Assembly (NCBI RefSeq): GCF_963921235.1
Contig: NC_086097.1
Location: 106,270,001-106,334,000, forward strand
DNA length: 64,000 nt
Direction: 5' to 3'
Source of the DNA: Mobula hypostoma
Taxonomy: Eukaryota
Under the pieces are notes generated by a model that ran no database searches, was not told where the DNA came from, and was given only the letters and a program-made list of their open reading frames with translations. Shown here piece by piece: positions 3,496 through 39,529 of this stretch; the stretch's first letter is position 1, and every line of letters starts with the position of its first letter. Made by a program: the position numbers and the translations under genes.

Positions 3496-3953
3496 AGTTC
3501 GAATACTAAGTGGTTTAAAAATCAACAGAGAGGAAGAGAAATGCTGCTGAAAGACTTTTGAGAAACAGGCCCAGACATTAATCCCTTAGCATTAAGTAGT
3601 GAAGGCAGACCTGGATGAAAATGTGAGAGAAGTCAATGCCTCATCAAAGTGCACTGGGGTTCAGTTATTGCTGGATTCTAATGCTGAATGGACAAGGAAT
3701 GTGACGAGTTGAACATCTTGAGTAAGATCCACCAAGGATTTTGCTAGGTCTTCATGACAACCATCTCTCTATCAGGGAATTCCCAACTGCGTAAACTCCA
3801 TCTAAGGATAAATACTGGCATGAGACTGAGAGTCAACAAGTACTGTAAGGAACAGTTGAAAAGAACTTTCAAGAGAGAGTTCAAGAGGGTGTGAAACTGC
3901 TGAGAGGTAAACGGGTGGATTCTGTGCAGTCCAACTGGAGGGTTCAACCCAGT

Positions 3954-4248
3954 CACGAGGAAATCTGCAGATGCTGGAATTTCAAGCAACACACATAAAA
4001 GTTGCTGTTGAATGCAGCAGGCCAGGCAGCATCTCTAGGAAGAGGTACAGTCGACGTTTCGGGCTGAGACCCTTCGGCAGGACTAACTGAAAGAAGAGCT
4101 AGACTAGCTCTTCTTTCAGTTAGTCCTGCCGAAGGGTCTTGGCCCAAAACGTCACGGTATCTCTTCCTAGAGGTGCAAACGTCGACTGTACCTCTTCCTA
4201 GAGGTGCTGCCTGGCCTGCTGCGTTCACCAGCAACTTTTATGTGTGTT
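3954..4248. mobile_element. Fold-back PLE terminus element (two inverted arms, centre 4103), 13-bp TSD
   Basis: AAGAAGAGCTAG-A-CTAGCTCTTCTT centre; TSD GGTTCAACCCAGT at 3941-3953 and 4249-4261. Confidence 0.9.
4049..4084 (-). ncRNA. Minimal type I hammerhead motif, best-preserved copy (one core change, CUGCCGA)
   Basis: Reverse complement AGTC-CTGCCGA-AGGGTCTCAGCCC-GAAAC-GTC-GACT: stem I AGUC/GACU, stem II GGG/CCC, GUC triplet. Confidence 0.75.
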
Positions 4249-5993
4249 GGTTCAACCCAGTGGCCAGATTGGCCGCATGAGGCAGGGCAAATCTCACTTT
4301 TCCATGAGGTTACTGCCTCCCGTTCGGGCAATGACCCCCCAGATTTAAGATTTGACCCTCCTCCTTTGCTGATATCTTTCTCTTGAGAAGCATGGCCCTT
4401 TGCTGTCTCATTTGTCTTCTTCAAGCATGAGTTTTTGCCTTGCTTAGCTAGGTTAGGGAACTTGCAGGAGACACGTTCTCCTGGAATTTTATTTTAAGGA
4501 AGTTACTGTATTGGCAATGCCATGGATCTGACTATACAATAAGTGGAGAAGCTGTAAGATGCATAAGTATTCGAGGCTATGAAAGCAGCAGCTGGCTCTT
4601 GTGCCCTAATATTCAGACCTCAGGACAGTGCTGTTCCTAAATGTGTCAGGCCAATATGAACTGCCGAAAATGGAAAAGGCATCTGAGTTTTCAGGAAATA
4701 ACTGATCATTTGGATTTTTTAAAACCAGGATAAGTGACAATTTGGATAATGAAAAGTGAAACACTTTCTCTTTGTGAAGAGGTCTGAGTTTTTTGCCAAG
4801 GGGAGCCTTCTAATCTGGCATTCTGGATTTTGGCGATGATAACCTCATCCACACCAATGACCAAATCTCACCTTGATCACAGAGCTTTGGCTATGGGGAA
4901 AAGGAAATGGAACAGGAGCAAAGCTCCACAGAGTACAGTCCAGACTGATGTGTGTAGGTTGTCTCACAGGATGTCACATAACTCAGCCTTTGGAAACCTA
5001 TGTTTCGATATGCATTGTTCCTTGGATGGTCATGATTGGAACTAGCCTTCCCGAGAAGTATCAGTGGGTATGTCCTCTTCCCCCAGCCCCTAATCTCCCT
5101 TCAGTCACCTTACAATATCTAACCTGAACTTCAAACTGTCAGTAATGCAACCAATGATGCCTTTATCACTTTATTTCCTCAGCAATTAAACTCTCCAAAA
5201 AATATAAAAGTACATGCCCGATCTGCTGAGTGTTTCCAGCTTGTTCTGTTTTTGTACCAGTTTATAGCATTGCTAGAACACTCTGGGGTGTTCTTTGCAT
5301 TTTTACAAACTAACTTGCTTTTTGAACTTGTGCACTTCACTTCAGTTTGACATTGTGAATCACTGACATTAGATCTGATCTGTGGTAAAGTGGATTCACA
5401 ATGGATGCTCCTGGTCTTATTTTATAATTGTTGCAAGTTGACCTGAGAATCACTACAAATGTGATTTATACTTGCGTAAATCGATTCTTGATCTCTGTGC
5501 TGAAAAAGACAGTTGGCTGTGATGAAATTTCCTGGCAAGTGGGTAGAAATGCTTCAAGCAGTTGTGATGCTTTAAGATAGATGCGTCTTTGGATAGGTAG
5601 GCATCATGCATTTCCAAAGGCCAATGATATTAAATGAGGTGAGAATGCAGGCCAGACATCAGCGTCACCCCACTACAAACCAATATGAAAGTGAAGCCGA
5701 CACTTCAGACAGCAGTGTGATATATTTTTAATATAGAGAAGTATTTTTATGCCTTCCATAATGTTAATGGAAAATAAACTGCTATTTAAAATGAATTGGT
5801 ATAGTTGATATAACCTCCAAATCTGCTGAAGACCTTAAAGTGGCTGCTTGTACAAATATTTTGTAATTTACATAATACAGTATTCATTTTTTTATCATTG
5901 ACAGCGTGTTTCCACTGTGATTGCACATTATAATATTAAAATTAACAACATTTTTCACAAGAAACACCTGCAAAATGTTCATATATTGAGCAG

Positions 5994-7001
5994 CAAACAC
6001 GAGGAAATCTGCAGATGCTTGAAATTCAAGCAACACGCAAAAAATGCTGGTGGATGCAGCAGGCCAGGCAGCATCTATAGGAAGAAGTACAGTGGCTGTT
6101 TCGGGCTGAGACCCTTCGTCAGGACTAACTGAAAGAAGAGATAGTAAGAGATTTGAAAGTGGAAGGAGGAGGGGGGTAATCCGAAATGACAGGAGAAGAC
6201 AGGAGGGGGAGGGATGAAGCTAAGAGCTGGAAAGTTGATTGGCAAAAGGAATACGAGGCTGGAGAAGGGAGAGGATCATGGGTTGGGAGGCCTAGGGAGA
6301 AATAAAGAGGGAGGGGAGCACCAGAGGAAGATGGAGAGAAGGCAAAGAATTACTGTGAGAGGGATAGAGAGAGAAAAAAAGGGGGAAATAATAAATAAAT
6401 AGGGATGGGGTAAGAAGGGGAGGAGGGGCATTAACGGAAGTTAGAGAAGCAGGATCTTCGAGTGGCCATACATTTTAATTCCGTGTCCCATTCCCATTCT
6501 GTTATGTCTATCCATGGCCTCCTCTACTGTCAAGATGAAGCCACACTCAGGTTGGAGGAACAACACCTTATATTCCGTCTGGATAGCCTCCAACCTGAAG
6601 GCATGAACATTGACTTCTCTAACTTCCGTTAATACCCCTCTTCCCCTTCACACCCCATCCCTTACTTATTTATTTATTGATTATTTCTCCCCCTTTTCTC
6701 TCTCTATCCCTCTCACAATAACTCCTTGCCTGCTCTCCATCTTCCTCTCGTGCTCCCCTCTCCCCTTCTTTCTCCCTAGGCCTCCCATCCCATGATCCTC
6801 TCCCTTCTCCAGCTTGGTATCCCTTTTGCCAATCAACTTTCCAGCTCTTAGCTCCATCCCTCCCCCTCCTGTCTCCCCCGCCTCCTTCCACTTTCAAATC
6901 TCTTACTATCTCTTCTTTCAGTTAGTCCTGACGAAGGGTCTCAGCCCAAGACTTCTTCCTATAGATGTTGCCTGGCCTCCTGCGTTCCACCAGCATTTTG
7001 T
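5994..7001. mobile_element. Fold-back PLE insertion: inverted arm 5994-6449 plus sense arm 6450-7001 containing the GIY-YIG C-terminal coding end; 13-bp TSD
   Basis: Arms are reverse complements over ~400 bp; TSD ATATATTGAGCAG at 5981-5993 and 7002-7014; homologous to 1495-2130. Confidence 0.9.
6091..6126 (-). ncRNA. Hammerhead motif with intact CUGACGA and GAAA, altered cleavage region
   Basis: Reverse complement AGTCCTGACGAAGGGTCTCAGCCCGAAACAGCCACT. Confidence 0.65.
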
Positions 7002-7009
7002 ATATATTG

Positions 7010-7290
7010 AGCAGTATGGCAGTGTAGTGGTTAGCACAATGCTTTGCAGAACTAGCGACGTGGGTTCATTTCCCTGTCACTGCCCGTGAGGAGTTTGCAT
7101 GTTCTCCCTGTGGCTGTGTGGGTTTCCTCCAGGTGCTCTGGTGACCTCCCACAGTCCAATTACTTACCGGTTGGTAGGTTAATTGATCATTGGAAGTAAT
7201 CCCTTTTATTAAACTAGGGCTTAAATGCGCATGGCTGGGCAGCACAGCTTGAATGGCCTATTCCATGCTGTATATCAATAAATAAATTTT
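7010..7290 (+). mobile_element. V-SINE-like tRNA-derived SINE
   Basis: Head GGCAGTGTAGTGGTTAGC...GGGTTCATTTCCC; core GTGTGGGTTTCCTCCAGGTGCTCTGG..CCTCCCACAG; (AATA)n tail. Confidence 0.8.
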
Positions 7291-7869
7291 CTAATAGAAC
7301 AGAAGAAACCCCAAGCAGATGAATAGAATAAAAATGAAGTAAGTCTAAAGAATTAAGAGGATGAAAGTCAGTAATGCTGGCAACGTCAGCCCATTGTACT
7401 CTGCCTCAGGAATTCTACTGACTTCAAAGGAATGAATTTCAAATGATATTGTGTGTTTAGTGCTGCTGTTTTGGAACAAAATTCTCAGCACAAATCTTTA
7501 AGTGATTCTACTTTAAAAATATCTACAGCACTGTATTAACCTGGAAGTATTCCTGACAGCTTTCCCGTGTAAACTCTTCCCGAGTGTACTTAACTTACAA
7601 CACTTTATATAAGTGATTCTACAATGTCTTGGAGGTTTGCTATCGTCTCCCAGAACACTGTAGTACTCTATGTCCACTAAGATGCATCTGCTAAACAACG
7701 CTCTGTTCCTCATCCATTGAAATATTAAGTAGCGTACATTTATAATGGTAGAAATTGAGACTGATAACCTTGCTATGCGTCCTACAATACTTCTTCTATT
7801 GAAATATACACAACTCAGAACATTAGTCCCAACATGATCAAAGTCAGGAAGCAAAAGGTTGAGCATGGT

Positions 7870-10050: not shown

Positions 10051-10342
10051 TGGGAATCTTCCTATCACATTTCATGAGTTAACAGATCTTCTTGGGTAGG
10101 AGCCACACTAAGGCTGTAGGATGTTCATTTATTGCCCATTTCACCATCTCTCTGGGAGGACCTAATTTGGTGGTGGTACCACATACAGAATTATTTTTTA
10201 CACACCAATAAAGCAAATTCCAATCCTAGTCATTAAAATATTATCTGATTCAGATATTCATGAATACTCATATACATCAATTAATTTAATGTGGATCAGA
10301 AATTGTGGGGTGGGGAGGAGAGTGGTAGGGTAAACAAATGTA

Positions 10343-10638
10343 CACTCAGTGGCCACTTTATTAGGTACACCTCTTCAACTGCTCGTTAATGCAAATATCT
10401 AATCAGCCAATCATGTGGCAGCAACTCATTGAATGAAAGCATGCAGAAAACCACACCGTGATCCACTCCCGTACATAATAAAGTGGCCATTGCGTGTGAA
10501 TTGTTTTGAAAAGCAACTGAACATTTTGACCATGTCTGCATGATTCTAGGCATTGAGTAGCTGCCACATGATTGGCTGATTAAATATTTGTTTTCACGAG
10601 CAGGTTACAAGTGTACCTAATAAAGTGGCCACTAAGTG
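10343..10638. mobile_element. Tc1/mariner-derived MITE with ~100-bp TIRs and TA TSD
   Basis: TA-CACTCAGTGGCCACTTTATTAGGTACAC ... GTGTACCTAATAAAGTGGCCACTAAGTG-TA. Confidence 0.88.
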
Positions 10639-13600
10639 TACACTGTAAATGGTATTTCTTGTCATACCAAGTGACAGCAGAGGGCTTCAACATGATACAT
10701 CTTTGCATGCCTACAATAGTGTTGAGGAATGGAGATCAAAGCTAAGTGGTACTGATGCCAAATGTAGCACCACTCACCACCCCTCCCCCCCACTCACCAC
10801 ACCTGCATTCCTACAGCCAATTCTCCCTCCTCCCTATTACGTAATTTTTTTTTCAAAATCAGCCAGCCCAGTTCACACTGGAAAATAAGTCTATTCATTG
10901 CAAGGTTACGACTAAGTTAAACGACCAATCCTTCAGGAGGGTTAGAACTGAAACTAGATTTTGAAATATCTGCAAAGCCCAAATAAAAGCAGTTACATTT
11001 TTATAGCTCTTGTTAAAATTAGCATTGCACTATTAATGTAGTTTGAAAGAGGCCAGAAAAAAAAGATTTGTTGCATTCTGGGAGACTTGATTTCTTCTGT
11101 TAATGAGAAGCAACATCCCTGACTTGCTAACCGATCCAGACCTTACTGATATAGACTTGGGCTGTTTATTAATAATGAATTTGAATGTTCACATGTGGAA
11201 TGTTATCAGCCTGTGCACAATTCAACCAATAGTTAGCCCTGATGGGGGTAGCTGGGTTCCTCATTAGCAGAACATATTTAATCCAGAAGTTTCTTATCAA
11301 ATGTCACACCTGCATCTCTAAATGGCTTTTTCACATTCAGTTGCAAGTATTTCTGAGATGAGGCTCCAAGGTGCTTTACGGAGATTAAGAACGAGAGAGT
11401 GCAAGCCTATTTTATCATTTAGCAAGTCTGGAAAGAATCCAAGGAGTTTTTTGTTTTGTTGTTGTAATTAAAAAGCCTTTTAGGCAACAGCGTATGCATT
11501 GAAATATGAATATTCAGTGGAAGAGTATAAACTGGAATGCTGCCCCTTTGGATCTGAAGACCCCCTTACTCCACTGAAAAGCACATACTGATAGATCAAA
11601 ATAGAGTACATATTTAAAAATAGGGAATTATTTCAGAGAAATTATGTCCTTAGTTGTACACAAAAAACATCCATTTAAATCAGTGTAAATTTACACGAGG
11701 TTCCGAATAAATGTATGGCATTTGTTTCCAAATAATTGTTTTGATTGCCTTTGTAATAAATGTATTTAATCAACTTTCCTGCAATATTCTAATATCAGAA
11801 ACTATTAAAATATACAGTATAAGATCGAAAGGATTAACACTGTCATGAAGAGAAAGCTGCCAATACTCTATGTGTTTAGGTTTGTTTTCTGAAAGACATT
11901 CTGCTTCCAACTAGAATGTGGAGGCTGCGAGTAACAAGGTACTGTGTCACTGAGCAGTGGGGTGAAAGGGAAATCAGGCATATTGGTCACTCATCATTAG
12001 ATTGCAATATGACCATTAATTTCATTTGAATTGGATCACAGATCTGCTCAGGCAATAAAAGGGATGGACAGTGGTATTAAATGTTTTCTTCTGCTTCCTG
12101 GGATCATGGAAGTTGGTTCCCATGTAGAAAATTATCAAAATGATAACTAAAGGTTGCAGTAAAGGCTAACCTGGCTGCAGCAGTGAAGATGGGACAGGAT
12201 AGTTGCCTGTTTGGCAGCAGGTAGAAGATTATGAGTTTAGATCAGAGGATGAAAGAAAAATAGTATGTATAGGCTCTGAACAAAACCTTAAATGGTGCAG
12301 CACATGGCTTACAATCATAGTTTGGGTGCTTATGATGTTCATTATCTACATCAAAACTCGGGGATGACCACCATAGGAAAATAGTATGGTTTTTCAACCC
12401 AGCTGGTGCACCAATTGTTATAATTGGAAGGCTGGAAGGCACAACATGCAGAATTACCAGAAGTTTAATTTTGTTAAAGCCCACCCCCCCCCCCTTAGTT
12501 CAGTGTGGAAGATCTCAGATATCTCACAAATCAGGACCAGATTAATAGTTTCTGTATACTTAGTAGGACCAAATTGCCCTGATCTTTTGGGGATCATGCA
12601 GGTCTTTGTCTGGAAGGATCAACAAAAGGAGGAAGAAAGTCTGCAAGCTAGCTCCAACTCAATTACTAAATAGTGGAGTAAGGAGAGAAAGCCTAAGTTT
12701 AAAAACTAGCAGAATGGCATCTGATACGGGGATATGCAACAGAATCTAAGAAGCATGCCTTCATCCCACATCCACCCCATTTTGTCTGATGCTAACAGAG
12801 TGGTCAATAATGTCAGGTGGCTGCATAAAAAAGCAATCAAGGCTGCAGTCATTCCCAAAATTAGCAGATTGTTGGCACTAGACATGAAAACATTGTAAAC
12901 TTTGCTGTAGTAGGTGAGAGCAGACTCTGATTCAAGCATGAACAGTGAAAACCCATAGTTTTGGTGTTGACGTCTATTTGAAAGAATGGACCATTTTATT
13001 GAGTGCACCCCCATTAATGGCACAATGCCATAATGTACTACAGAGATGAATAGAGTAATCACTTGTAATTTAGGAATTGTTTTTCCCAAAAGTAAATTCT
13101 CTTTGTTTATTCAAATATGCAAATTATCTTCAGTTAACTGTAGCAATCCTTTTCAATGATCGACATGTCTCTGCTAGGTCAACTTCATGAATTCCAAATG
13201 ACAACTCTTTGATTGCTATACACCTGATATGGTCTCCTCAGTAAATATATTACTGCCATATATGCATATAATTTTAAAGGGAGATTGGTCACTGGCTTTA
13301 AAACCTAGATACAATGGTGAAGTCACAATTTTATGAAAGCTGCTCTGAATATTTGGAACTTACTGTGGGAATTTATGAGCTTACAATCCGATACAGGGTC
13401 TGGCATAATCTACGATCAACAATGGAATTAAGCAAATCATGTTATTAAGTCAAGCTCTGTCCTCAATGTTTGCCTTGGTCATATAAAAAGGGACACAACT
13501 AATTCATTTTATTATGACTCATGTCAATCTTAGGATTTGTTTATTATGTATAAGAAAGTGAATTCCTCCTTCATGGAAGTAGTTACATTTTCTGACTACA

Positions 13601-14323
13601 TGCTCCTGGCATATTCCAGGAGTAGAAATTCGCACTTACAGCTAAATCTTTCCTCACCTTTATGTGCAAGTTGTGTTGAGGCAAAATTGGAACTGCCAGG
13701 GAAATCAGTGGCTTTCTTTATCAGGCATGTAAATTTCTGTCCATTACCACCTGGTGTCCACTATGAAGAGCAGCTCAGAGGTGGTTGATTCCACGGTCTG
13801 AAATATAACAGTTGACTTATAGATCATAACATATTTTTAAGATCACCAGTTTTATGTCTTAATTTTTTTAGTTGACTTCCTTCATTCTTTGTCCTGAAGC
13901 TGTGATATAGTTCCAGAATCACAGTTTAAGTTTGGTATATCCACTGTTATTCTTAGAAAGGCTTTTACAAGTTCATTTATGGAAACATAATGAACAACCA
14001 TAACCAGGACATCATCTGACCTTTGTGCAGCATCAGGATATGGATACCAAATGGCTACTGTGCTTGGAATCTTGGCAGATTTTTCTTTTACCAGATGAGG
14101 AGAAAATGTCTAGTGGTCAGTGTCTCAGTGTGTTGATGATTACTTGTGACTGAGTCCGAAGACCTTAATCCTTCTTTGCAGGTTACTGGATGTCACATGC
14201 TATTAGACAGGAAAATTTGCTAACTCTTCCCTATTTTCTAGGCCGTCGTAAAGGTCAGTTGCAAACTCAGCTATTCCTGAGGTTGGCAGGTTGGTGAAGT
14301 CAACAGAAACAATATTATAACAG

Positions 14324-14541
14324 AGCAACACATGCAAAGTGCTGGAGGAACTCAGCAGATCAGACAGTATCCATGAAAATGAATAAACAGTCGACTTTTT
14401 GGGCCGAGATCCTTCATCATGACTCAGCCCAAGAATTGACTATTTATTCATCTTCATAGATGCTGTCTGACATGCTGAGTTCCTCCAACATTTTGTGTGT
14501 GTTGCTCTGTATTTCCAGCATCTGCAGAATCGCTTGTGTTT
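14324..14541. mobile_element. Fold-back PLE terminus element of an older subfamily, 13-bp TSD
   Basis: Inverted arms meeting near 14425; TSD AATATTATAACAG at 14311-14323 and 14542-14554. Confidence 0.85.
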
Positions 14542-14994
14542 AATATTATAACAGGCATAGTAGGTTTTAATGGAGGTGAAACTGAGCTAGAAATGAGGCA
14601 AGGTTCAGGGAAGGCACTCCAGTGCTTAGGGCTAAGGCCACCAACAGCATCGTAAGGAAAACTGTAGATGCAGAAGAAATCAGAACTGGAGAAATCAATA
14701 AATCATTTAGGCTAGAAACTTAGGGAAAGAGTGAGGATGAGACAACTGAGTAACTGAAAACAAGGCGAATAATACTCAGATCAAAATATAGTTATACCAG
14801 GAGAAAACAGTAGATAGATTAGCTCAGATTGATGATGCAGGTTATAATTCTGCATGAGATACTTGGAAGAACTGAAGGATGGATAGTTTAGGATGGCCCC
14901 ATTCAATCAGGTGTGTACCAGACACAAAGTATTACATAAAAATTAAGCAATTTACATAACTCATAAGAAAATTCTTTTCAGTGAATATCCACAA

Positions 14995-15135
14995 TCTACA
15001 GATGCTGGAAATCTACTACAAAACAGAAAATGCCTGAAGGATCTGTGTGAGAAGACCCTTCATTTCAACCAACAGTCTTTGACCTGAAACAGTACCCCCA
15101 TTTCTCTATCTAGTGAGTTCCTCACAATATTTTAA
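14995..15135. mobile_element. Highly decayed PLE terminus relic
   Basis: CAGATGCTGGAAATCT...GACCCTTCAT...GACCTGAAAC...GAGTTCCTC. Confidence 0.45.
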
Positions 15136-15832: not shown

Positions 15833-16305
15833 TGCAACATACCCAAAATACTGGAGAACTCAGCAGGTCAGGCAGCATCTACGGAAATGATTAAACAGTT
15901 GATGTTTTGGGCTGAGACCCTTCTTCAGGACTGAGAAGGAAGGGGGAAGATACCAGAATAAAAAGGTGGGGGCGTAGGGAAAATAGTCTAGGTGAAGCCA
16001 GGTGGATGGGAAATCGAGAGCTGGAGAAGAAAGTATCTGATAGGAGAGGAGAGTGGACAATAGGAGACAGGAAGTGACAGGGAAGTGGTAGGCAGGTGAG
16101 AAGGTCAGAGTGCAAAATAGAGGGGGGTGGGGTGGAACTTGTTTACCAGAAGGAGAAATCAATGTTCATACCATCAGGTTGGAGGATACCCAGACAGAAT
16201 ATAAAGTGTTGCCCCTCCACCCTGAGGGTGATGAGACCACGAATCAACATGTCAAAATGGGAATGGGAACTGGAATTAAAATGTTCGGCCATTGGGAAGT
16301 CCCAT
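15833..16305 (-). mobile_element. PLE 3' fragment (GIY-YIG end + pLTR), hammerhead relic at 15897-15932
   Basis: Antisense of ...QPDGMNIDF; reverse complement AGTCCTGAAGAAGGGTCTCAGCCCAAAACATCAACT. Confidence 0.85.
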
Positions 16306-17212: not shown

Positions 17213-17328
17213 AGAAAAAGAGATTCTGCAGATGCTGGAAATCCCAAGTAACACACACACACACACAATACTGGAGGAACTCAGGTGGTCAGGCAGCGTC
17301 TATAGAGAGGAATAAAGGGTCAACATGT
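17213..17328 (-). mobile_element. PLE terminal tail fragment
   Basis: AGAGATTCTGCAGATGCTGGAAAT...CTGGAGGAACTCAG...CAGGCAGCGTCTATAG. Confidence 0.75.
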
Positions 17329-17720: not shown

Positions 17721-17798
17721 CCTCTATTGCTTCTAACTTGTTACCATTTAGAAACTATTCAATCTTCTTCAGTTGAAAGTGGATTTGACTGCAATGTA

Positions 17799-20737
17799 CA
17801 GTGGTATGCAAAAGTTTGGGCACCCCCGTCAAAATTTCTGTTACTGTGAATAGCTAAGCGAGTAAAAGATGAACTGATTTCCAAAAGGCATAAAGTTAAA
17901 GATGACACATTTCCTTAATATTTTAAACAAGAAAACATTTTTATTTCCATCTTTTACAGTTTCAAAATAACAAAAAAGGAAAAGGGCACAAAGCAAAAGT
18001 TTGGGCACCCTGCATGGCAGTACTTAGTAGCACCCCCTTTGGCAAGTATCACAGCTTGTAAACGCTTTTTGTAGCCAGCTAATAGTCTTTCAATTCTTGT
18101 TTGGCGGATTTTCGCGCATTCTTCCTTGAAAAAGGCTTCTAGTTCTGTGAGATTCTTGGGCCATCTTGCATGCACTGCTGTTTTGAGGTCTATCCATTCA
18201 AAAGGCTCAAAGGAACATCTAAACAAGCCTGATGCATTTTAGAAACACGTCCTATGGACTGATGAAGTTAAAAATAGAACTTTTTGGCTGCAATGAGCAA
18301 AGGTATGTTTGGAGAAAAAAGGGTGCAGAATTTCATGAAAAAAACCCATATAACCATATAACAACTACAGCACAGAAAAAGGCCATCTCGGCCCTTCTAG
18401 TTTGTGCCAAACTCTTACTCTCACCTAGTCCCACCGACCTGCACTCAGCCCATAACCCTCCATTCCTTTGCTGTCCATATAGCTGTCCAATTTAACTCTA
18501 AATGACAACATTGAACCTGCCTCAACCACTTCTGCTGGAAGCTCGTTCCACACAGCTACCACTCTCTGAGTAAAGAAGTTCCCCCTCATGTTACCTCTAA
18601 ACTTTTGCCCTTTAACTCTCAACTCATGTCCTCTTCTTTGAATCTCCCCCACTCTCAATGGAAAAAAGTCTGTCCACATCAACTCTATCTATCCCCCCTC
18701 ATAATTTCAAATACTTCTATCAAATCCCCCCTCAACCTTCTACGTTCCAAAGAATAAAGACCCAACTTGTTCAACCTTTCTCTGTAACTTCGGAGATGAA
18801 ACCCAGGTAACATTCTAGTAAATCTTCTCTGTACTCTCTCTATTTTGTTGACATCTTTCCTATAGTTTGGTGACCAAAATTGTACACAATACTCCAAATT
18901 TGGCCTCACCAATGCCTTGTACAATTTCAACATTACATCCCAACTCCTATACTCAATGCTCTGATTTATAAAGGCCACCATACCAAAAGCTTTCTTCTCT
19001 ACCCTATCCACATGAGATTCCACCTTCAGGGAACTATGCACCTTATTCCTAGATCCCTCTGTTCTACTGCATTCTTCAATGCCCTACCATTTACCATATA
19101 TGTCCCATTTTGATTAGTCCTACAGCTCACAAATGTGCAGCACCTCACATTTATCAGCATTAAACTCCATCTGCCATCTTTCAGCCCACTCTTCTAACTG
19201 GCCTAAATCTCTCTGCAAGCTTTGAAAACCTACTTCATTACCTACAACTCCACCTATCTTAGTATCATCTGCACACTTACTAATCCAATTTACCATCCCA
19301 TCATCCAGATCATTAATATATATAACAAACAACATTGGACCCAGTACAGATCCCTGAGGCACACCACTAGTCACCGGCCTTCAATCTGACTCACAGTTAT
19401 CCATTCTGGCGTCTCCCAACCAGCCACTGCTGAATCCATTTTACTACTTCAATATTAATACCTAACAATTGAACCTTCCTAACTAACCTTCCGTGTGGAA
19501 CCTTGTCAAAGGCCTTACTGAAGTCCACATAGACAACATCCATCGCTTTACCCTCGTCAACTTTCCTAGTAACCTCTTCAAAAAATTCATAAGATTTGTC
19601 AAACATGACCTTCCACGCACAAATCCATGTTGACTGTTCCTAATCAGACCCTGTCTATCCAGATAATTATATATACCATCTCTAAGAATACTTTCCATCA
19701 ATTTACCCACCACTGACGTCAAACTCACAGGCCGATAATTGCTAGGTTTACTCTTAGAACCCTTTTTAAACAATGGAACAACATGAGCAATATGCCAATC
19801 CTCCATTTCTAATGATATTTGAAATATTTCTGTCAGAGCCCCTGCTATTTCCACACTAACTTCCCTCAAGGTCCCAGGGAATATCCTGTCAGGATCCGGA
19901 GAGTTATCCACTTTTATATTCCTTAAAAGCCCCAGTACTTCCTCTTCTTTAATCATCATAGTTTCCATAACTTCCCTACCTGTTTCCCTTACCTTACACA
20001 ATTCAATATCCTTCTCCTTAGTGAATACAACCCCTCTCCAACTGTTAAGCATGGGGGTGAATCGATCATGCTTTGGGTTTGTGTTGCAGCCAGTGGCACA
20101 GGAAACGTTTACTGGTAGAGGCAAGGATGAATTCAATTAAATACCAGCAAATTCTGGAAGCAAACTTCACAACATCTGTAAAAAAGCCGAAGATGAAAAG
20201 AGGATGGCTTCTACAACAGGATACAGTAATGATCCTAAACACACCTCAAAATTTACAATGGACTACCTCAAGAGGCGCAAGCTGAAGGTTTTGCCATGGC
20301 CCTCATAGTCCCCTGACCTAAACATCATCGAAAATCTGTGGATAGACCTCAAAAGAGCAGTGCATGCAAGACGGCCCAAGAACCTCACAGAAGTAGAAGC
20401 CTTTTGCAAGGAAGAATGGGCAAAAATCCCCCAAACAAGAATTGAAAGACTCTTAGTTGGCTACAAAAAGTGTTTAAAAGCTGTGATACTTGCCAAAGGG
20501 GGTGTTACTAAGTACTGACCATGCAGGGTGCCCAAACTTTTGCTTCGTGCCCTTTTCCTTTTTTGTTATTTTGAAACTGTAAAAGATGGAAATAAAAAAG
20601 TTTTCTTGCTTAAAATGTTAAATAAATGTGTCATCTTTAACTTTGTGCCTTTTGGAAATCAGTTCATCTTTTTCTCGCTTAGCTATTCACAGTAACAGAA
20701 ATTTTGACCGGGGTGCCCAAACTTTTGCATGCCACTG
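17799..20737 (+). mobile_element. Tc1-like DNA transposon (IR/DR type), non-autonomous, with nested CR1
   Basis: TA-CAGTGGTATGCAAAAGTTTGGGCACCC ... GGGTGCCCAAACTTTTGCATGCCACTG-TA; inner direct repeat GCAAAAGTTTGGGCACCC near 17993; transposase motifs WTDE (~18256), PTVKHGG, QQD, SPDLNIIENLW, AKGGVTKY. Confidence 0.95.
18346..20028 (-). mobile_element. 5'-truncated CR1 inserted in the Tc1 transposase
   Basis: RT motifs [40 protein letters not shown]; (GTTATATG)n tail; transposase sequence resumes either side. Confidence 0.95.
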
Positions 20738-22168
20738 TATCTAATCTTTCAGCCCCATTATTTACCATTTATAAACAGTTGCATCAAACCAATTTTAACA
20801 GCTGACACTTTACCCAACTCTTGGTCTCTTCTTGCAGAATAATCTCCTTCATAATTAATATCATATAATTTGTTCTATTTCAGAAAAATTTAGAATATTG
20901 TTTACATAACAATACAAGTGACATGTGAATTGCTTCTATTAAATGGAGAATTGAGCCAAGCATTAGGACCTTTTGCCATCTTGTATCAGAAGTTATCAAT
21001 AATAAATAAGTAAAATTAAGGATGCTATAGGCCATTATCTTTCTGAGAATTTGAAATATGTTTATAAAATGTGCAATCCAGTCAGATGCTTTCTGTAGCA
21101 TTGAATCTTAGTGAGTTTATGTCAAGGCATTGTTAAAGAAATCATCCAAAGGCATTTCAGTATTCAAATGAGATTGGATTGAATAATCTGTAATACAAAT
21201 AGGTTTGAAACAGTGGTAGTAGTTTTGTTTATTCCGTAACCCTTTCAATGTAATGTACTGTTCATTTCTTTTGTTAAACAGTATATGCTTATCAGTTTGG
21301 AACTGTCACCTTTGGAATTTAGCTGCCTGTAGCTCATTTCACATGTCTAAATCTTAACAGGACTATTGCACATTCGGACAAATTTAGCTCTGAAGTCACT
21401 TGGCCCTTTCTGTTTTTAAATTATGCCTAAATTACAAGTCCTTCCTAAGCAGAACAAAATTACTGGATGAATTTCTTCAGCAACTCTTACAGGGATGACA
21501 AGACTTCAATCTGAATGGCAATGCATTATCATGCAGACACAGCTTACCACATGACCTCTGGTGGCTAGGTCAAAAACCAGCCATGTTAGCAATTCAGGTG
21601 TTTCCCTTGCATGATCACAGCACATATTGCTTGATAGAAAGATATTCTTCCACATTTAAGCCTAATGTATCTGTGGAATACATGCCGCTCAACCACCTTC
21701 CATTAGGTAGCACTTTGCCATGGGTCATGTTTCAAGGTTAGAATGATAAAGTAACTTTTGCATTTGATCAGATAAATATTTCCCCCATTCAACTGATGCA
21801 AGCACTCATTTCCAATCAAATGGCTGTTGGTTGAATTGTTCTAAAATTATTTGTGAATATTTTTCTGGCTGGAAGCTTAAGATGCCAGGAAGATTTACAT
21901 TCCAAGCTAGAATTTCTCCCTTAAAATGCAACAGTTTTGATTTCTTACTCTAGTGTTACATTTCATCATGTTATTTATTATTGATTTTTGAGAATATAAA
22001 AATGTATTATCACCATTCGATTACATAGCTTTCATTTTAAAAATAAACAATTTCTGTGAATATGGTCCATTGCAAATACAGTACTTGAAAATATATTTAC
22101 GACAAAATCACAATTTCACACCCTACTTTTATCCCTATAACTCTGGCCTAATTGTATCATATTCAATT

Positions 22169-27230: not shown

Positions 27231-29775
27231 CAGTGTGAGTAGGCCAGTGAAGGAGTGGAGCTTTGAGGATTTGACTCGACAGGCTTCGACGAGAAGAGGC
27301 GGAGGACGAGCTAGCTCCCAGTTTGTTTTTACAATGTCTCCTGAGACGGTGATGTGCCTCTCATGTGAGATGTCTTGGGGGAACTCCCCTCTCCCGCAGA
27401 GTCACATCTGCCAGAAGTGCATATGGCTGGGCGATCTGGAAGACCATGTAAGGAATCTGGAGCAGAAGCTGGATGACCTTCAACTCATAAGGGAGAATGA
27501 GGCAGTCATAGATGAGAGCTACAGGAAGGTAGTCACACCTAGGCTGTCGGAAGCAGGTCGTTGGGTAACAGTCAGGGGGGGAAAGTGAAGGTGAGCAGAC
27601 AGGTAGTGCAGAACACCCCAGTAGCCATTCCCCTGAATAATAAGTTTACTGTCCTGGATACTGTTGGCAGGGACGACTGACCAGGTGTGAGCCACGGTGG
27701 CAGGGCCTCCAGCACTGAGTCTGACCCTGCGGTGCAGAAGGGTGGGATGGAGAAGAGGAGAGCTGTCGTCATTGGAGACTCTATAGTTAGGGGATTTTGT
27801 GGATATGAGAAGGACACCCGTATGGTTTTTTGCCTCCCAGGTGCCAGGGTCCGGGATGTCTCTGACCGGGTGCACGACATCCTGGTACGAGAGGGAAAGC
27901 AACCAGAAGTCGTGATACATGTTGGGACCAACGACATAGGCAGGAAGAGGGATGAGGTCCTGAAGTGTGAGTTTCGGGAACTAGGCAGAAGGCTGAAGAA
28001 CAGGACCTCAAGGGTGGCGTTCTCAGGATTGCTGCCAGTGCTACGTGACAGTGATGGTAAGAATTGGAGGAGATGGCAGTTGAATGCGTGGCTGAGGAGT
28101 TGGTGCAGGGAGCAGGGTTTTAGATTTTTAGATCATTGGGATCTCTTCTGGGGAAGGTGGGACCTGTACAGATTGGATGGGTTGCACCTGAACTCGACGG
28201 GGAGCAATATCCTTGCAGGTAGGTTTGCTAGCATGGTTCGGGAGGGTTTAAACTAATTTGCGAGGGGGATGGGACCCAGAGCGATAGAGCAGTGAAAGAA
28301 GTGCATGGAGTAAAGCCAGATCTAACATACCACGGGAATGGTACCGGAGGATTGGAGGGAGGCGAATGTTGTCCCCTTCTTCAAAAAAGGTAGTAGGGAT
28401 AGTCTGGGTAATTATACACCAGTGAGCCTTATGTCTGTGGTGGGAAAGCTGTTGGAAAAGATTCTTAGAGATAGGATCTATAGGCATTTAGAGGATCATG
28501 GTCTGATCAGGGACAGTCAGCATGGCTTTGTGAAGGGCAGATCGTGTCTAACAAGCCTGATAGAGTTCTTTGAGGAGGTGACCAGGCATATAGATGAGGG
28601 TAGTGCAGTGGATGTGATCTATATGGATTTTAGTAAGGCATTTGACAAGGTTCCACATGGTAGGCTTATTCAGAAAGTTAGAAGGCATGGGACCCAGGGA
28701 AGTTTGGCCAGGTGGATTCAGAATTGGCTTGCCTGCAGAAGGCAGAGGATGTAGGTGGAGGGAGTACATTCAGATTGGAGGATTGTGACTAGTGGTGTCC
28801 CACAAGGATCAGTTCTGGGACCTCTACTTTTCGTGATTTTTATTAACAACCTGGATATGGGGGTAGAAGGGTAGGTTGGCAAGTTTGCAGGTGACACAAA
28901 GGTTGGTAGTGTTGTAGATAGTGTAGAGGATTGTCAAAGATTGCAGAGAGATATTGATAGGATGCAGAAGTGGGCTAAGAAGTGGCAGATGGAGTTCAAC
29001 CCGGAGAAGTGTGAGGTGGTACACTTTGGAAGGACAAACTCCAAGGCAGAGTACAAAGCAAATGGCAGGATACTTGGTAGTGTGGAGGAGCAGAGGGATC
29101 TCGGGGGACATGTCCACAGATCCCTGAATGTTGCCTCACAGGTGTATAGGGTAGTTAAGAAAGCTTATGGGGTGTTAGCTTTCATAAGTCGAGGGATAGA
29201 GTTTAAGAGTTGCAATGTAATGAAGCAGCTCTATAAAACTCTGGTTAGGCCACACTTGGAGTACTGTGTCCAGTTCTGGTCGCCTTACTATAGGAAGGAT
29301 GTGGAAGCATTGGAAAGGGTACAGAGGAGATTTACCAGGATGCTGCCTGGTTTAGAAAGTATGCGTTATGATCAGAGATTAAGGGAGCTAGGGCTTTACT
29401 CTTTGGAGAGAAGGAGGATGAGAGGAGACATGATAGAGGTGTACAAGATAATAAGAGGAATAGATAGAGTGGATAGCCAGCGCCTCTTCCCCAGGGCACC
29501 ACTGCTCAATACAAGAGGACATGGCTTTAAGGTAAGGGGTGCGAAGTTCAAGGGGGATATTACAGGAAGGTTTTTTACTCAGAGAGTGGTTGGTGCGTGG
29601 AATGCACTGCCTGAGTCAGTGGTGGAGGCAGATACACTAGTGAAGTTTAAGAGACTACTAGACAGGTATATGGAGGAATCTAAGGTGGGGGCTTATATGG
29701 GAGGCAGGGTTTGAGGGTCGGCACAACATTGTGGGCCGAAGGGCATGTACTGTGCTGTACTATTCTATGTTCTAT
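27231..29775 (+). mobile_element. CR1 copy A: 5' UTR, ORF1 and RT, with an internal deletion at 28329/28330 removing APE and linker
   Basis: ORF1 then abrupt jump to MVPEDWREANVVP; (TATGTTC)n tail. Confidence 0.93.
27334..28256 (+). pseudogene. CR1 ORF1: CxxC..CxxC zinc finger, leucine zipper, SGNH esterase-like domain
   Basis: CLSC..CQKC, LEDHVRNLEQKLDDL, VIGDS, HVGTND, DGLH; broken by frameshift and stop near 27585-27680. Confidence 0.85.
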
Positions 29776-31949: not shown

Positions 31950-32140
31950 TTTCTGCAGCTGTAATAGTACCCTGACCAGTAATGCCACCCCTCCTCCCCT
32001 TTGTCCCCCCTCTCTATCCCTTTTAAAGCACTGAAATCCAGGAATATTGAGAATCCATTCCTGCCCTGGTGCCAGCCAAGTCTCTCAGTTCATCACCTTT
32101 GTTCCTGATGTTTCTTGCATTGAAGTACACGCACTTTAGC
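31950..32140 (-). mobile_element. Inverted fragment of the CR1 APE region
   Basis: Reverse complement of 32554-32788 with an internal ~45-bp deletion at GAGA microhomology. Confidence 0.9.
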
Positions 32141-32489
32141 TATATGTATGTTAAAGTGATTTCCTTTGAATGTAGTGACAAGTTTGCAAAGAATGTAACC
32201 AAAATTACTGAGAGACCCTTCCGGATATCTGCAAGTGTAATTCACTGTGGAAATCCCGGTTAGATTCACACAGAAATAGTGGCAAACTTCAGTAGTTCCA
32301 CATAATCACTGCCATAAAATCTGGGCCAATCAGAGCAAACTTTCCATCAAAACAATTTCTGAAGAATCAGTCAATGCAAAGCATGATAGAAAACAATTTG
32401 TCCATGCACAAGAGTACCCTTTGGTACCCAGTTTGCATTTCTTCAATTTGTGTCAATCTGTCAAGGGCCCAATGTTTGAGTGTCCATGT

Positions 32490-35400
32490 CATATAGAGAG
32501 GCTTTGAGGAAAGAGAAGCAGAATAAAGGGTGTAAAGGTAGTAAGGTAGAAGGGCTAAAGTGCGTGTACTTCAATGCAAGAAGCATCAGGAACAAAGGTG
32601 ATGAACTGAGAGCATGGATACATACATGGAATTATGAGGTAGTGGCCATTACAGAGACTTGGCTGGCACCAGGGCAGGAATGGATTCTCAATATTCCTGG
32701 ATTTCAGTGCTTTAAAAGGGATCGAGAGGGGGGACAAAGGGGAGGAGGGGTGGCATTACTGGTCAGAGTACTATTACAGCTGCAGAAAGGATGGGTAATG
32801 TAGCAGGATACTCCTTTGAGGCAGTATGGGTGGAAGTCAGGAATAGGAAGGGAGCAGTTACTCTATTGGGAGTATTCCATAGGCCCTGTGGTAGCAGCAG
32901 AGATACAGAGGAGCAGATTGGGAGGCAGATTTTGGAAAAGTGCAAAAATAACAGGGTTGTTATCATGGATGACTTTAACTTCCCGAATATTGATTGGCAC
33001 CTGATTAGTTCCAAGGGTTTAGATGGAGCAGAGTTTGTTAAGTGTGTCCAGGATGGATTCCTGTCACAGTATGTGGACAGGCCGACTAGGGGGAATGCCA
33101 TACTAGATCTAGTATTAGGTAACAAACTGGGTCAGGTCACAGATCTCTCAGTGGGTGAGCATCTGGGGGACAGTGACCACCGCTCCCTGGCCTTTAGCAT
33201 TATCATGGAAAAGGATAGAATCAGAGAGGACAGGAAAATCTTTAATTGGGGAAAGGCAAATTATGAAGCTTAAGGCTAGAACTTGCGGGTGTGAATTGGG
33301 ATGATGTTTTTGCAGGGAAATGTACTATGGACATGTGGTTGATGTTTAGAGATCTCTTGCGGGATGTTAGGGATAAATTTGTCCCGGTGAGGAAGATAAA
33401 GAATGGTAGGGTGAAGGAATCATGAGTGACAAGTGAGGTGGAAAATCTAGTCAGGTGGAAGAAGGCAGCATACATGAGGTTTAGGAAGCAAGGATCAGAT
33501 GGGTCTATTGAGAAATATAGGGAAGCAAGAAAGGAGCTTAAGAAGGGGCTGAGAAGAGCAAGAAGGGAGCATGAGAAGGCCTTGGTGAGTAGGGTAAAGG
33601 AAAACCCTAAGGCATTCTTTAATTATGTGAAGTAAAAAAGGATGACAGGAGTGAAGGTAGGACCGATTAGAGATAAAGGTGGGAAGATGTGCCTGGAGGC
33701 TGTGGAAGTGAGCGAGGTCCTCAATGAATACTTCTTTTCGGTATTCACCAATGAGAGGGAACTTGATGACGGTGAGGACAATATGAGTGAGGTTGATGTT
33801 CTGGAGCATGTTGATATTAAGGGAGAGGAGGTATTGGAGTTGTTAAAATACGTACCATAGAACCATAGAACCATAGAAACTACAGCACAGAAACAAGCCC
33901 TTTGGCCCTTCTTGGCTGTGCCGAACCATTTTCTGCCTAGTCCCACTGACCTGCACACGGACCATATCCCTCCATACACCTCCCATCCATGTATCTGTCC
34001 AATTTATTCTTAAATGTTAAAAAAGAACCCGCATTTACCACCTCGTCTGGCAGTTCATTCCATACTCCCACCACTCTCTGTGTGAAGAAGACCCCTCTAA
34101 TGTTCCCTTTAAACTTTTCCCCCCTCACCCTTAACCCATGTCCTCTGGTTTTTTTCTCCCCTTTCCTCAGTGGAAAAAGCCTGCTTGCATTCACTCTATC
34201 TATACCCATCATAATTTTATATACCTCTATCAAATCTCCCCTCATTCATCTACACTCCAGGGAATAAAGTCCTAACCTATTCAACCTTTCTCTGTAACTG
34301 AGTTTCTCAAGTCCCGGCAACATCCCTGTAAACCTTCTCTGCACTCTTTCAACCTTATTTATATCCTTCCTGTAATTTGGTGACCAAAACTGAACACAAT
34401 ACTCCAGATTCGGCCTCACCAATGCCTTATACAACCTCATCATAACATTCCAGCTCTTATACTCAATACTTTGATTAATAAAGGCCAATGTACCAAAAGC
34501 TCTCTTTACGACCCTATATACCTGTGACGCCACTTTTAGGGAATTTTGTATCTGTATTCCCAGATCCCTCTGTTCCACTGCACTCCTCAGTGCCTTACCA
34601 TTAACTCTGTATGTTCTATGTTGGTTTGTCCTTCCAACGTGCAATACCTCACACTTGTCTATATTAAACTCCATCTGCCATTTTTCAGCCCATTTTTCCA
34701 GCTGGTCCAAGTCCCTCTGCAGGCTCTGAAAACCTTCCTCACTGTCTACTACACCTGTCTACATTAGGACAGATAAGTCCCCGGGGCCCGGCGGAATATT
34801 CCCCAGGCTGCTCCACGAGGCAAGGGAAGAAATTGCTCAGCCTCTGGCTAGGATTTTTATGTCCTCATTGTCTACGGGAATGATACTGGAGGATTGGAGG
34901 GAGGCGAATGTTGTCCCCTTGTTCGGATTGGAGGGTTGTGACTAATGGTGTCCCATAAAGGATCAGTTCTGGGACCTCTACTTTTCGTGATTTTTATTAA
35001 CGACCTGGATGTGGGGGTAGAAGGGTGGGTTGGCAAGTTTGCAGATGACACAAAGGTTGGTGGTGTTGTAGATAGTGTAGAGGATTGTCAAAGATTGCAG
35101 AGAAACATTGATAGGATGCAGAAGTGGGCTGAGAAGTGGCAGATGGAGTTCAATCCGGAGAAGTGTTAGGTGGTACACTTTGGAAGGACAAACTCCAAGG
35201 TAGAGTACAAAGTAAATGACAGGATACTTGGTAGTGTGGAGGAGCAGAGGGATCTCGGAGTACATGTCCACAGATCCCTGAAAGTTGCCTCACAGGTGGA
35301 TAGGGTAGTTAAGAAAGCTTATGGAGTGTTAGCTTTCATAAGTCGAGGGATAGAGTTTAAGAGTCGCGATGTAATGATGCAGCTCTATAAAACTCTGGTT

Positions 35401-35930: not shown

Positions 35931-35959
35931 AATCCAGGTCTGCTGATCTCAGGGTTTGA

Positions 35960-36182
35960 CAACTGTTTATGGGTGTGGGTGGTAGGAGGAATGGGGCTTG
36001 TTTTGCTGCTATTTTGTTGCTTGTTGTGTTTTGTGTTCTAACATGTCATAACATGTGGACATGTTATGTTGGTGCCGGAATGTGTGGCGACACATCCTTG
36101 GATTGTGCTGGTTGTCAACGCAAACAATGTATTTCACTGTCTGTCTCAATGTGCATGCGATATATATACTTGAATCTTGATG
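35960..36182 (+). repeat. Probable old retroposon 3' UTR fragment
   Basis: TG-rich body ending ATTTCACTGT...TGAATCTTGA, like a non-LTR tail; family not identified. Confidence 0.35.
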
Positions 36183-38848
36183 GCACTGCCTTATTCTGCA
36201 GATTCCAGTTCTCCCTTTTTACTTAAGTCTACTCACACTCCTGTGCCTCTCTTGTACTGCACACCATGTTTTGAGGCCTTTATGAGCCTCTGATTGTTGC
36301 AGCAGCAAGCCAACAAACAAAGCACCATTAGCCTGCCGTGCATCATCCCATCACTGCACTTAAACAAGTTGCTATCCTCTTTTCAGGCCCCAGACATATG
36401 CCACATAATGGCATTTGCTAAGCAATACCGTAGATCAAGTGCAGATGATTGATGGAGAAGGATAGAGAGTGAAAGGATAGAAGGTCACCTTTGATCAGAG
36501 TTCTGCATTGCAGCAAACACTTTTTAACAGAACATCTCAGACAGTAACACATATAAAATTGGAAAACAACTAAGATATTCTGCTGCTGCCAACTCACTCT
36601 CAAACTGAACTTATTCTTGTTCAAAACTTTACTACAGCTTTGAAATTTACAGAAAATTATAATGCAATAAAAGATTTAAACAACTGCCTTCTTGTGTTAC
36701 ATGACTGCTCAATATAGGTATACTATGGTTGATAATGCAGAAGTATTAAACAATTCCTGGCATAACCAAGTCAAAATATCTGACTGTAGCTTTCTATCAG
36801 CCAATAACTACATTATAAACAGTAATTACTTTGAAATCTGCATCTTGTTCAGAATTTGACAGCACAATGGAATTACTTTTTATCAAAGCAGAAGCCCACA
36901 CATACCAGAGGAATCCACGGGTACACTGCGCTGATTAATCCCTGCATTCCAAACGGTCTTAGTCATTTGTAATACCAATGAAAACATAATCAAGATTGTA
37001 TTTAGCATCGCTGCCAGGGAACCTTATCACTCTTAACTGCATAGAAAAGTGATGTCTTTGACCTTGAAAGATTAACTATGATTTCATGATGAGTTTGTCC
37101 TTTTATCTTGTCAGTTGTATTTTTTGGGGAGGGGTGCATAATGAGAGTTGTATCAGCTGAACACATTGTTAGAACATTTGACACACTGCGAGATAATACA
37201 GCTTTAACTTCAACCACAGTATCACCATCAGCGTATCATATGATTACTTCATTCCCATCTCCTCCTCTTCACCTTCTGCCCCAATGGAATATTCCCAATT
37301 TAGGTCTTTCATTGCTGAGATACCCAGATACTCCTGACCGAATTGATTTTGTGATCCAGTTTCTTGGTTACTCAGGTACAGATCAGAATATCACAAAACG
37401 TGAGTGTGCAGACCACAGGACTCTTAAGCTCCACAGCAGCAGGCTATTTAAAATGCTGCATTTTTGGCCTGAATTTAATTCATGTTTATCGATTAAAGCT
37501 GAAATACAGCCTTATATATTCGAACAATGGAAGATCATATATTACAAGGCTATAATCAATGCAGGATTCTATTGACAACAGGAAGCATGAGAGTGCAGCC
37601 CAAATAATTCATGAAGTAAATTAAATAAATACCATTTATAATATTAGAGACACCATACAATTGTAACTTCTTTAAAAGCAAAAGTAATGTTTTATTTCAA
37701 TTGTAAATTGTAGCTTTGTGATTGCTGTGGTGAGATAGAAGGATACAGTGATGCAGGGAAAAACGTTTGACATTGCATGGCAAATGTAAAGTAATGCTAA
37801 GCACTGCGTAATTAAAGTGCATCAATATCCCAGGCTTATAACCTGTACAGTACTATACAGGGGTTGCATATGCCACACAATCATTTTCATTTCAAGATAT
37901 GGGTCAACATCAGATAGACAGATATCAAAGCTAAATCAAGAATGTCATCCTAACAAAATGTTTTTGTTCCTTCATTATGGAGAATCCATTTATGATGCAT
38001 TGGTTGGTGCATTATTCAGTTTCCAGCAAAACACTATCTCCAATTATTCATATTTTAATGTTTACCCCAGTGGCTATTGCTTGGAGGCAATCAATATGTT
38101 GGAAACATAACCTTGGACACATTAGCAGTTACTTTTCTCTAGATAATGTTAATTAGTATGTTATCAGAGAATTGCACCTCATATTTGTATCTGTTCCTCT
38201 CAACATACTTTCTGCCCTTCTTTTGGACACCCTTGTGATACACATCCTTTCCAAACTAAATGGGTAAAAATGCGTCTTGGTGCTGGGTCCTTATGGCATT
38301 GAAAGAATGTAGCAAGGCAATTTGAATGAATGAGCCGTCTGCTTCCTTAGTTTATGCATAATTTCCCTTGCTATGATCACTATTTAAACGGCATTAATGT
38401 TCAGTACGATACTAATAATTGCAGGTAAACTTTCAAGAAGATAAATCTTTGTGAAAATTCTCCCTCTCTGTCAAATGTATTTGAGGAAAATTACAAGATA
38501 TGACTCTAGTTTGCAAACCTGCAGTACAAATCCAATTATTGTTCTTGCCACCTGGTAACATCTATGTACTCAGCAGTACACTACTTTAAAATATAATAAA
38601 TTACTTTTCTCCACTAAATAGACGCACAATTTCTCTACATAAAGTCACTATAACTTCCAAATTATTTTACAATTGCACCTCGATGGAAAGTCAGTTATTC
38701 AAAAAAATTCACCTATGCTGGCAGCCTAAAGTTGGAAACACTGATCAATAACATTAGATATTCCTGTTGATATGTCGGTAGATAGAATTTTAGAGTGTAA
38801 AAGTAAATGAAGTATTTGCACATGGAAACAATACTGTATGTCAAAGGA

Positions 38849-39147
38849 ACACACATCAAAGTTGCTGGTGAACGCAGCAGGCCAGGCAGCATCTCTAGGA
38901 AGAGGTACAGTCGACGTTTTAGGCCAAGACCTTTCATCAGGACTAACTGAAGGAAGAGTTAGTAAGAGATTTGAAAGTGGGAGGGGGAGGGGGAGATCCA
39001 TTTTTTCCTTCAGTTAGTCCTGACGAAGGGTCTTGGCCTAAAACGTCGACTGTACCTCTTCCTGGAGATGCTGCCTGGCCTGCTGCATTCACCAGCAACT
39101 TTGATGTGTGTTGCTTGAATTTCCAGCATCTGCAGAATTCCTGTTGT
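38849..39147. mobile_element. Fold-back PLE terminus element, 14-15 bp TSD; hammerhead motifs at 38909-38944 (-) and 39016-39051 (+)
   Basis: TSD CTGTATGTCAAAGGA at 38834-38848 and 39148-39162; arms are reverse complements. Confidence 0.92.
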
Positions 39148-39529
39148 CTGTATGTCAAAGGACACACTCTAAGCCCCCACATGAGATCAAAATTCTCCTG
39201 ACAGGTCTAGTTGCAGTTGCATCTAACAGAAAGAACGAGAAATAAACATAAAACTTCCTTTCAATAGATAAGGATTTCAAGGGTCCTTCATTGATGATGA
39301 ACAATATACTGTATGCAACTTTGGGGCAAGTTTTGAACCGGTGGTACTCCACATATTTCCTTTCCTCACAGTCTATTCTTACTATGACAGGTGTAGGGTT
39401 ATGTAGTGCCCCTGGTGACCTGAAAGATGTGATTGTTTAAAGGATGAATGGGATTATCAGTCAAGTCTTGCCTTGTCCCGGATTTGTCAAATATTGTGGA
39501 ACTGCACATCCAAGCAAAGGCATAACATT

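Follow-up and report, generated by a model that had tools for sequence, protein, structure and literature searches.

Fold-back insertions and their parent element

A 64,000-nucleotide (nt) stretch of the Mobula hypostoma genome (NCBI RefSeq assembly GCF_963921235.1, contig NC_086097.1, positions 106,270,001 to 106,334,000 of the forward strand; the whole stretch is hereafter the window) contains four insertions, each of which holds two copies of the same 3′ end of a Penelope-like element (PLE), pointing outward. These fold-backs, E1 (3954–4248), E2 (5994–7001), E3 (14324–14541) and E4 (38849–39147), were all present where an original prediction had placed them, and they measure 295, 1008, 218 and 299 nt, with asymmetric ends. 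As had also been claimed, one arm runs to the full end of the element and the other stops ~25–50 nt short of it; measured to the maximal target-site duplication (TSD), the shortfall is 34, 45, 35 and 36 nt in E1–E4. A search for border repeats recovered the predicted TSDs as exact direct repeats of 13, 13, 13 and 15 bp adjoining the arms, the last being 14 bp if a shared base is assigned to the element. In all four fold-backs the TSD encloses both arms, and none lies between them. By comparison, an exact repeat of at least 13 bp was found in 7 of 3,000 random pairs of window positions with the same spacings.

Arm alignment resolved E1 into a tail-bearing arm on the minus strand (3954–4102) and a tail-less arm on the plus strand (4103–4248), flanked by TSD copies at 3941–3953 and 4249–4261; the arms meet at a 1-nt centre and form a near-perfect palindrome. 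In E2, which lies between TSD copies at 5981–5993 and 7002–7014, the tail-bearing arm (5994–6449, minus strand) comprises the entire terminal repeat and the last codons of the open reading frame (ORF). It joins the tail-less arm (6450–7001, plus strand) at an imperfect overlap of up to ~7 nt, judged against a copy that is ~20% diverged. E3, a member of a second subfamily, has its TSD copies at 14311–14323, the final four bases of which match the element too, and at 14542–14554. Its tail-less arm (14324–14424, minus strand) shares two exact bases with the tail-bearing arm (14423–14541, plus strand), which begins within hammerhead stem II. Finally, E4 (TSD copies at 38834–38848 and 39148–39162) consists of a tail-less arm (38849–39000, minus strand) and a tail-bearing arm (39005–39147, plus strand) separated in the sequence by four bases of filler (39001–39004). 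The inversion point was expected to differ from one insertion to the next, and the four inner junctions are indeed all distinct. Mismatches between partner arms number 6 of 115 in E1 (5.2%), 26 of 378 in E2 (6.9%), 14 of 92 in E3 (15.2%) and 8 of 114 in E4 (7.0%).

A longer copy of the element runs off the left end of the window (1–2130, plus strand; its tail end falls at 2134 if four ambiguous bases are counted), and the fold-back arms map onto it at 65–89%. It contains a broken reverse transcriptase (RT) frame (205–1206), a frame encoding a cysteine linker and a GIY-YIG endonuclease (EN; 1210–1674), and a terminal repeat with the tail end. This arrangement, a PLE-type RT followed by a GIY-YIG endonuclease at the C terminus, is that of an EN+ PLE. 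Pfam matches to RVT_1 (E = 6e-4) and GIY-YIG (E = 1.5e-4) both fall under the Pfam cut-off. The copy has 156 longer relatives, several of which carry RVT_1 and GIY-YIG together; the best named among them is a Chiloscyllium (bamboo shark) protein with 70% identity. According to the available excerpt of PMC8557442, the endonuclease of EN+ PLEs has two cysteines between GIY and YIG, together with conserved R, H, E and N (the CCHH motif). By eye, the frame at 1210–1674 keeps the first cysteine and the R, H, E and N, and its second cysteine is changed; both cysteines are kept in the relatives P0010 and P0016. A CX4CXXC linker is present in the frame and in P0004, P0010 and P0016. The same excerpt places a CX2-5CXXC linker between RT and EN in Neptune and Nematis and records its absence from Penelope/Poseidon. 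Because the element carries this linker, it is not Penelope/Poseidon proper, so that the original label of Penelope stands for the PLE assignment and fails for the clade; the linker cannot tell Neptune from Nematis. The insertion traits of EN+ PLEs (a tail of 30–40 nt on one end, an inverted 5′-truncated copy and a TSD) are all present. E1–E4 are clean examples of the known ‘inverted copy plus tail’ PLE insertion in a Neptune/Nematis-type family, and on sequence similarity we assign their arms to the 5′-truncated ends of such an element.

To place the arms among all PLE ends nearby, the window was searched with a 3′-end profile. The 15 hits correspond to 13 arms at nine loci (four fold-backs, four single-armed copies and the copy running off the window), an internal duplicate in E1 and one faint remnant (14993–15039, E = 0.0026). 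The 13 ends fall into seven tail ends, which sit 10–16 nt beyond a conserved word, and six internal ends, two of which belong to single-armed copies. For all eight fold-back arms the nearest neighbour among the 13 is the arm's own partner. Both arms of each fold-back derive from the same source. Partners also share derived changes, namely one substitution in the hammerhead core of both E1 arms and the same two changes in both E4 arms, which could alternatively reflect conversion between arms or parallel CpG decay.

Arm polarity and the tail-less junction

The two arms of a fold-back do not reach equally far in the 5′ direction. The tail-less arm exceeds the tail-bearing arm by ~164 nt in E2, where the excess is a spacer of additional ORF 3′ sequence, by ~16 nt in E3, by ~45 nt in E4 and by 1 nt in E1; it is thus the longer arm in three of the four, E1 being a near tie. 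In E2–E4 the spacer runs on from the tail-less arm without a break. Because this arm extends further 5′, neither arm merely copies the other. A copy made by folding back holds no more than its template does, and therefore the arm that bears the loop should also bear the tail, which is contradicted in all three informative cases. Simple self-priming fold-back cannot produce a tail-less arm that reaches further 5′. By contrast, two separately primed cDNAs account directly for the polarity, and its direction is the one expected if two RTs travel in convoy along a single RNA.

The tail-less junctions of E1–E4 (n = 4) were then compared with the sequence with which the element would have continued. 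Microhomology of 1–3 nt had been predicted here and was not borne out, the leading exact run being 1, 0, 4 and 1 nt. Over the first eight TSD bases, however, 19 of 32 positions match the element's continuation, as against 9.3 in simulated insertions (P = 0.0005–0.0007, or about 0.0015 when allowing for choice among windows of 3–13 nt). At the opposite end of the TSD, 7 of 32 positions match. Among 20 endpoint registers, the observed one ranks first alone in E1 and E3, whereas it shares first place with three others in E2 and with one other in E4; in E2, three G–T wobbles raise the pairing to seven of eight positions. The four single-armed copies were left out because, without a TSD, their junction can be set only at the first mismatch. 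The eight-base match would fit pairing of the target overhang with the RNA before priming, and it is also compatible with an endonuclease liking for self-like DNA.

We judge it probable, at roughly 0.6, that each fold-back arose in one retrotransposition event in which each of the two nicked strands primed a cDNA, both cDNAs copied one and the same 3′ segment, and their ends were then joined. The GIY-YIG endonuclease would nick the two strands 13–15 nt apart and leave 3′ overhangs; this stagger, which had been put at ~13 nt, is read from TSD length alone. One 3′ end would prime cDNA synthesis at the RNA's tail end, and the second, using a GU-rich stem-loop 31–46 nt inward, would do so in a register set by imperfect pairing of ~8 nt of the overhang with the RNA. 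Both cDNAs would copy the same 3′ segment, which therefore calls for strand displacement on one RNA or for two RNA copies from one source. Both would stop early, and their 3′ ends would be joined bluntly, by a short overlap or with filler, and the gaps filled. The original prediction spoke of twin priming, a process reportedly described for L1 by Ostertag and Kazazian in 2001. Priming from both nicked strands, at the tail and at an internal site, is retained from that proposal; the geometry in the L1 sense is not, since the arms copy the same segment. In vitro, PAc, a PLE of the anole, nicks and extends both strands, and its RT starts at two sites bounding the tail; ribozyme cleavage is unnecessary, and a dimer is predicted (PMC11167929).

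A more specific version, which we offer tentatively and regard as less than probable, makes a convoy of two RTs on one RNA the routine mode of PLE integration. A dimer would nick the strands about one helical turn plus 2–4 nt apart, imperfect pairing would bring the second overhang to its start in a fixed GU-rich loop, and the tail-primed RT would trail, displacing the leading cDNA. A stagger of 13–15 nt would lie about one helical turn above the short overhang of homing GIY-YIG enzymes. If the convoy is real, the tail-less arm should never be 5′-shorter, as seen in four of four fold-backs (one a near tie), and inverted pseudo-long terminal repeats (pLTRs), one-sided tail and TSD would arise in a single step, replacing the self-priming model.

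Several observations weigh against dual priming. The junction test was devised after the junctions had been seen and covers four events only, one of which, E2, ties with three registers; the leading exact run is not above chance (P = 0.096), and microhomology joining of a folded-back strand leaves the same signal. The polarity, at three of three informative cases among four events, has a chance probability of 1 in 8, and a palindrome that later lost sequence asymmetrically could show it as well. The near-perfect palindrome of E1 is the shape expected of self-priming, and four of the nine PLE-end loci are single-armed with no convincing TSD. As for the anole element, it belongs to a different clade. 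Its priming reportedly involves neither homology with the cut DNA nor a strand difference in start site (PMC11167929); this tells against the pairing step and by itself would not place a tail on exactly one arm, as in all four fold-backs.

Self-priming is nonetheless unlikely, although it survives best among the rivals. In this model, one cDNA, or an antisense RNA as Arkhipova et al. 2013 propose, would fold back and serve as its own template; the resulting hairpin would be opened and then either trimmed by the endonuclease or connected through microhomology at the internal site, with any central asymmetry resulting from later deletion. Self-priming as such is put forward in PMC3846280. The tail is attributed to EN-mediated resolution in the part of PMC8557442 available. 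The 1-nt centre of E1 and the derived changes common to the partners of E1 and of E4 are in favour of self-priming. Against it, the spacer of E2–E4 belongs to the tail-less arm. The tail arm is therefore not the template that bore the loop, and if the tail-less arm were the template there would be no source for the tail. Moreover, single-armed copies stop at the same internal site, and on sense RNA both sites serve PAc as starts of reverse transcription (PMC11167929).

We consider it improbable that existing hairpins were re-mobilised, with read-through transcripts of fold-backs being reverse transcribed whole; the origin of the first hairpin would then merely be deferred. Support for this idea comes from Adineta, in which pLTRs, acting in cis, are enough to mobilise the DNA between them (PMC3846280), and from the density of PLE ends (nine loci in 64 kb), such that four samples could stem from four masters. 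However, new loci should inherit the inner junction of their master, and none of the six pairs has a junction in common, the closest elements E1 and E4 included; the divergence between partner arms is also below that from any other copy. Least credible of all, at the level of a marginal chance, are two independent side-by-side insertions or a DNA element built of PLE ends in the manner of a miniature inverted-repeat transposable element (MITE): inverted ends with a short body are MITE-like and PLE ends are frequent in the window, but the two arms sit together inside a single TSD that does not recur between them, they are each other's closest relatives, and lengths vary, the four junctions differ and the ends are asymmetric. 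Both readings are rejected on these grounds, in keeping with the prediction of independent insertions over one amplified element.

Other PLE ends, hammerhead motifs and neighbouring elements

The single-armed copies lie at 15834–16302 (minus strand) and 39543–39830 (plus strand), which stop at and near the internal site, respectively, and at 17216–17325 (minus strand) and 49129–49278 (plus strand), which carry the tail. Searches around the four returned no TSD longer than 7 nt, the outcome being negative for the first and not convincing for the others. At least two subfamilies had been proposed, and two groups ~30% apart in the shared core were found: one comprises E1, E2 and E4 together with the long copy, the other E3 and three single-armed copies, with 49129–49278 falling outside both. 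Pattern scans for additional copies gave 0 matches in metagenomes, 0 in prokaryote genomes and 0 in viral contigs. A scan with a shorter pattern gave 62 loci, the best of which scored 16 bits against the profile, as compared with 56–141 for true arms; these were taken as chance. A search of sequencing runs listed 24, of which 20 held part of the stretch and 8 at least half its words, with no RNA run among those listed.

Read in the sense of the element, the target starts with CTG within four bases at three of the four fold-back tail junctions, after the long copy and at one of the four tail-less junctions (positions 2131, 3953, 5993, 14323 and 39148). A nick preference, or pairing with the last bases of the RNA, is a possible reason.

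Core boxes and stem II of a hammerhead are recognisable across the arms, in line with the motif that EN+ PLEs carry in their terminal repeat. By eye, each of the eight fold-back arms lacks at least one among the two core boxes and the cleavage triplet, and the E3 tail arm lacks the 5′ half of the core; active ribozymes in the hairpins are ruled out by a motif that is mutated or truncated in all eight arms. An Rfam search of the window returned three matches, none of them a hammerhead. Two are miRNA-family matches on the fold-back hairpins, below the gathering score and taken as shape artefacts; the third, to eukaryotic large-subunit ribosomal RNA at 3543–4145 (52.5 bits, cut-off 50), overlaps the E1 hairpin and is probably spurious. 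The original prediction envisaged a hairpin transcript with hammerheads in both orientations. A transcript through E4 is indeed predicted to fold as a long hairpin (z = −26 for the whole element), which is trivial for any inverted repeat; the hammerheads were already mutated, and a motif within the duplex would presumably be unable to fold. Folded alone, the E4 tail arm is not significant (z = −0.93). The shared core changes are located at 4045–4145 in E1 and 38903–39060 in E4. Because both arms share a core change, the source RNAs of E1 and E4 may have had dead ribozymes yet still moved, conversion or CpG decay being the alternative. The tail-less arm of E1 also holds a 30-nt tandem duplicate (~4146–4176) directly beyond the hammerhead site, both copies of which carry a change not found in the other arm. 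The fold-back products are dead, mutated relics, ordinary PLE debris, and hairpins at such density might feed small-RNA silencing.

Elements of other kinds are also present in the window. At 31950–32788, a head-to-head CR1-like pair has arms that are 98–99% complementary, a unique spacer of 413 nt and a gap of ~40 nt in the left arm; from its sequence, it looks like a young inversion-type insertion. An element at 17797–20739, which we take to be Tc1/mariner, has inverted ends of ~400 nt (94%), TA flanks and a CR1 piece inside. A short MITE-like inverted-repeat element occupies 10339–10642, and a unit of ~70 nt occurs in two tandem copies at 59546–59692. The open frame at 27681–28253 reads like the esterase-type ORF1 of CR1 elements.

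Comparison with known systems

An inverted 5′-truncated copy with a one-sided tail of 30–40 bp is given as a general PLE trait in the available excerpts of PMC8557442 and PMC8969392. In Adineta, pLTRs in inverted orientation, one of which bears a tail, were reported along with 8–10 bp TSDs, an empty allelic site and a self-priming model (PMC3846280). Like the complex insertions of EN+ PLEs, as far as these are covered by the accessible parts of the three sources (Adineta Pen2a, PMC3846280; PMC8557442; PMC8969392), E1–E4 have head-to-head inverted ends, a one-sided tail of 30–40 nt, variable 5′ truncation, one TSD around the unit and near-palindromic inner junctions. Unlike Pen2a, they have TSDs of 13–15 bp instead of 8–10 bp, and both of their arms are short. 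The published insertions are explained, in those parts, by self-priming or EN resolution and not by dual priming.

PAc, a Poseidon element of Anolis carolinensis, resembles the present element in its two start sites bounding the tail, its upstream hammerhead and its stem-loop (PMC11167929). The start loop is AC-rich in PAc, whereas it is GU-rich here (with a fold that is not significant, z = −0.93), and priming is reported as non-homologous there, in contrast to the imperfect 8-nt match found here. Inverted insertions are not derived in the available portion of that study. The hammerheads resemble the minimal motifs of PLE pLTRs in that, read in ORF sense, they have the core boxes, stem II and a short stem I, and differ from them in being mutated or truncated in all eight arms; in Schistosoma, hammerhead pairs lie 100–700 bp apart on opposite strands (PMC4209133, in excerpt). 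A non-LTR retrozyme, described in part of a preprint (bioRxiv 10.64898/2026.07.22.740005) as a tandem array in which every unit holds a complete type I hammerhead, is ruled out by arms that are inverted, not tandem, and by the damaged motifs.

Earlier publications (PMC3846280 and the available parts of PMC8557442 and PMC11167929) already describe inverted pLTRs, a tail on one side, TSDs, a pair of start sites for RT, and the nicking and extension of both strands. The origin of the inverted ends and tail is called undefined in the excerpt of PMC8557442 and is left to unvalidated steps in PMC11167929. Our literature search, mostly of non-subscription sources, found no explicit dual-priming model for PLE hairpins and no polarity rule; older Penelope papers may hold one. 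What is added here is the arm polarity and the 8-nt match between target and element at the tail-less junction. The spacer-bearing arm and the target/RNA match at the tail-less end are countable features that separate dual priming from self-priming without bench work, and the genome, with clean fold-backs between TSDs at four of nine PLE ends in 64 kb, provides a very large sample.

In L1 twin priming, as described in the available parts of PMC2912911 and bioRxiv 10.1101/2024.12.14.628481, both target ends prime and the cDNA ends are joined, as we propose here; microhomology is found at the internally primed junction (PMC2912911), and the TSD length, with a peak of 14–16 bp, is close to that of the fold-backs. 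A strict L1 twin-priming product, made of adjacent and essentially non-overlapping segments, is ruled out by arms that overlap over nearly their whole length. The two L1 cDNAs cover adjacent segments of the RNA, form no hairpin and have no fixed second site, whereas both arms of the fold-backs span the same 80–430 nt and the second site falls within a 10-nt zone.

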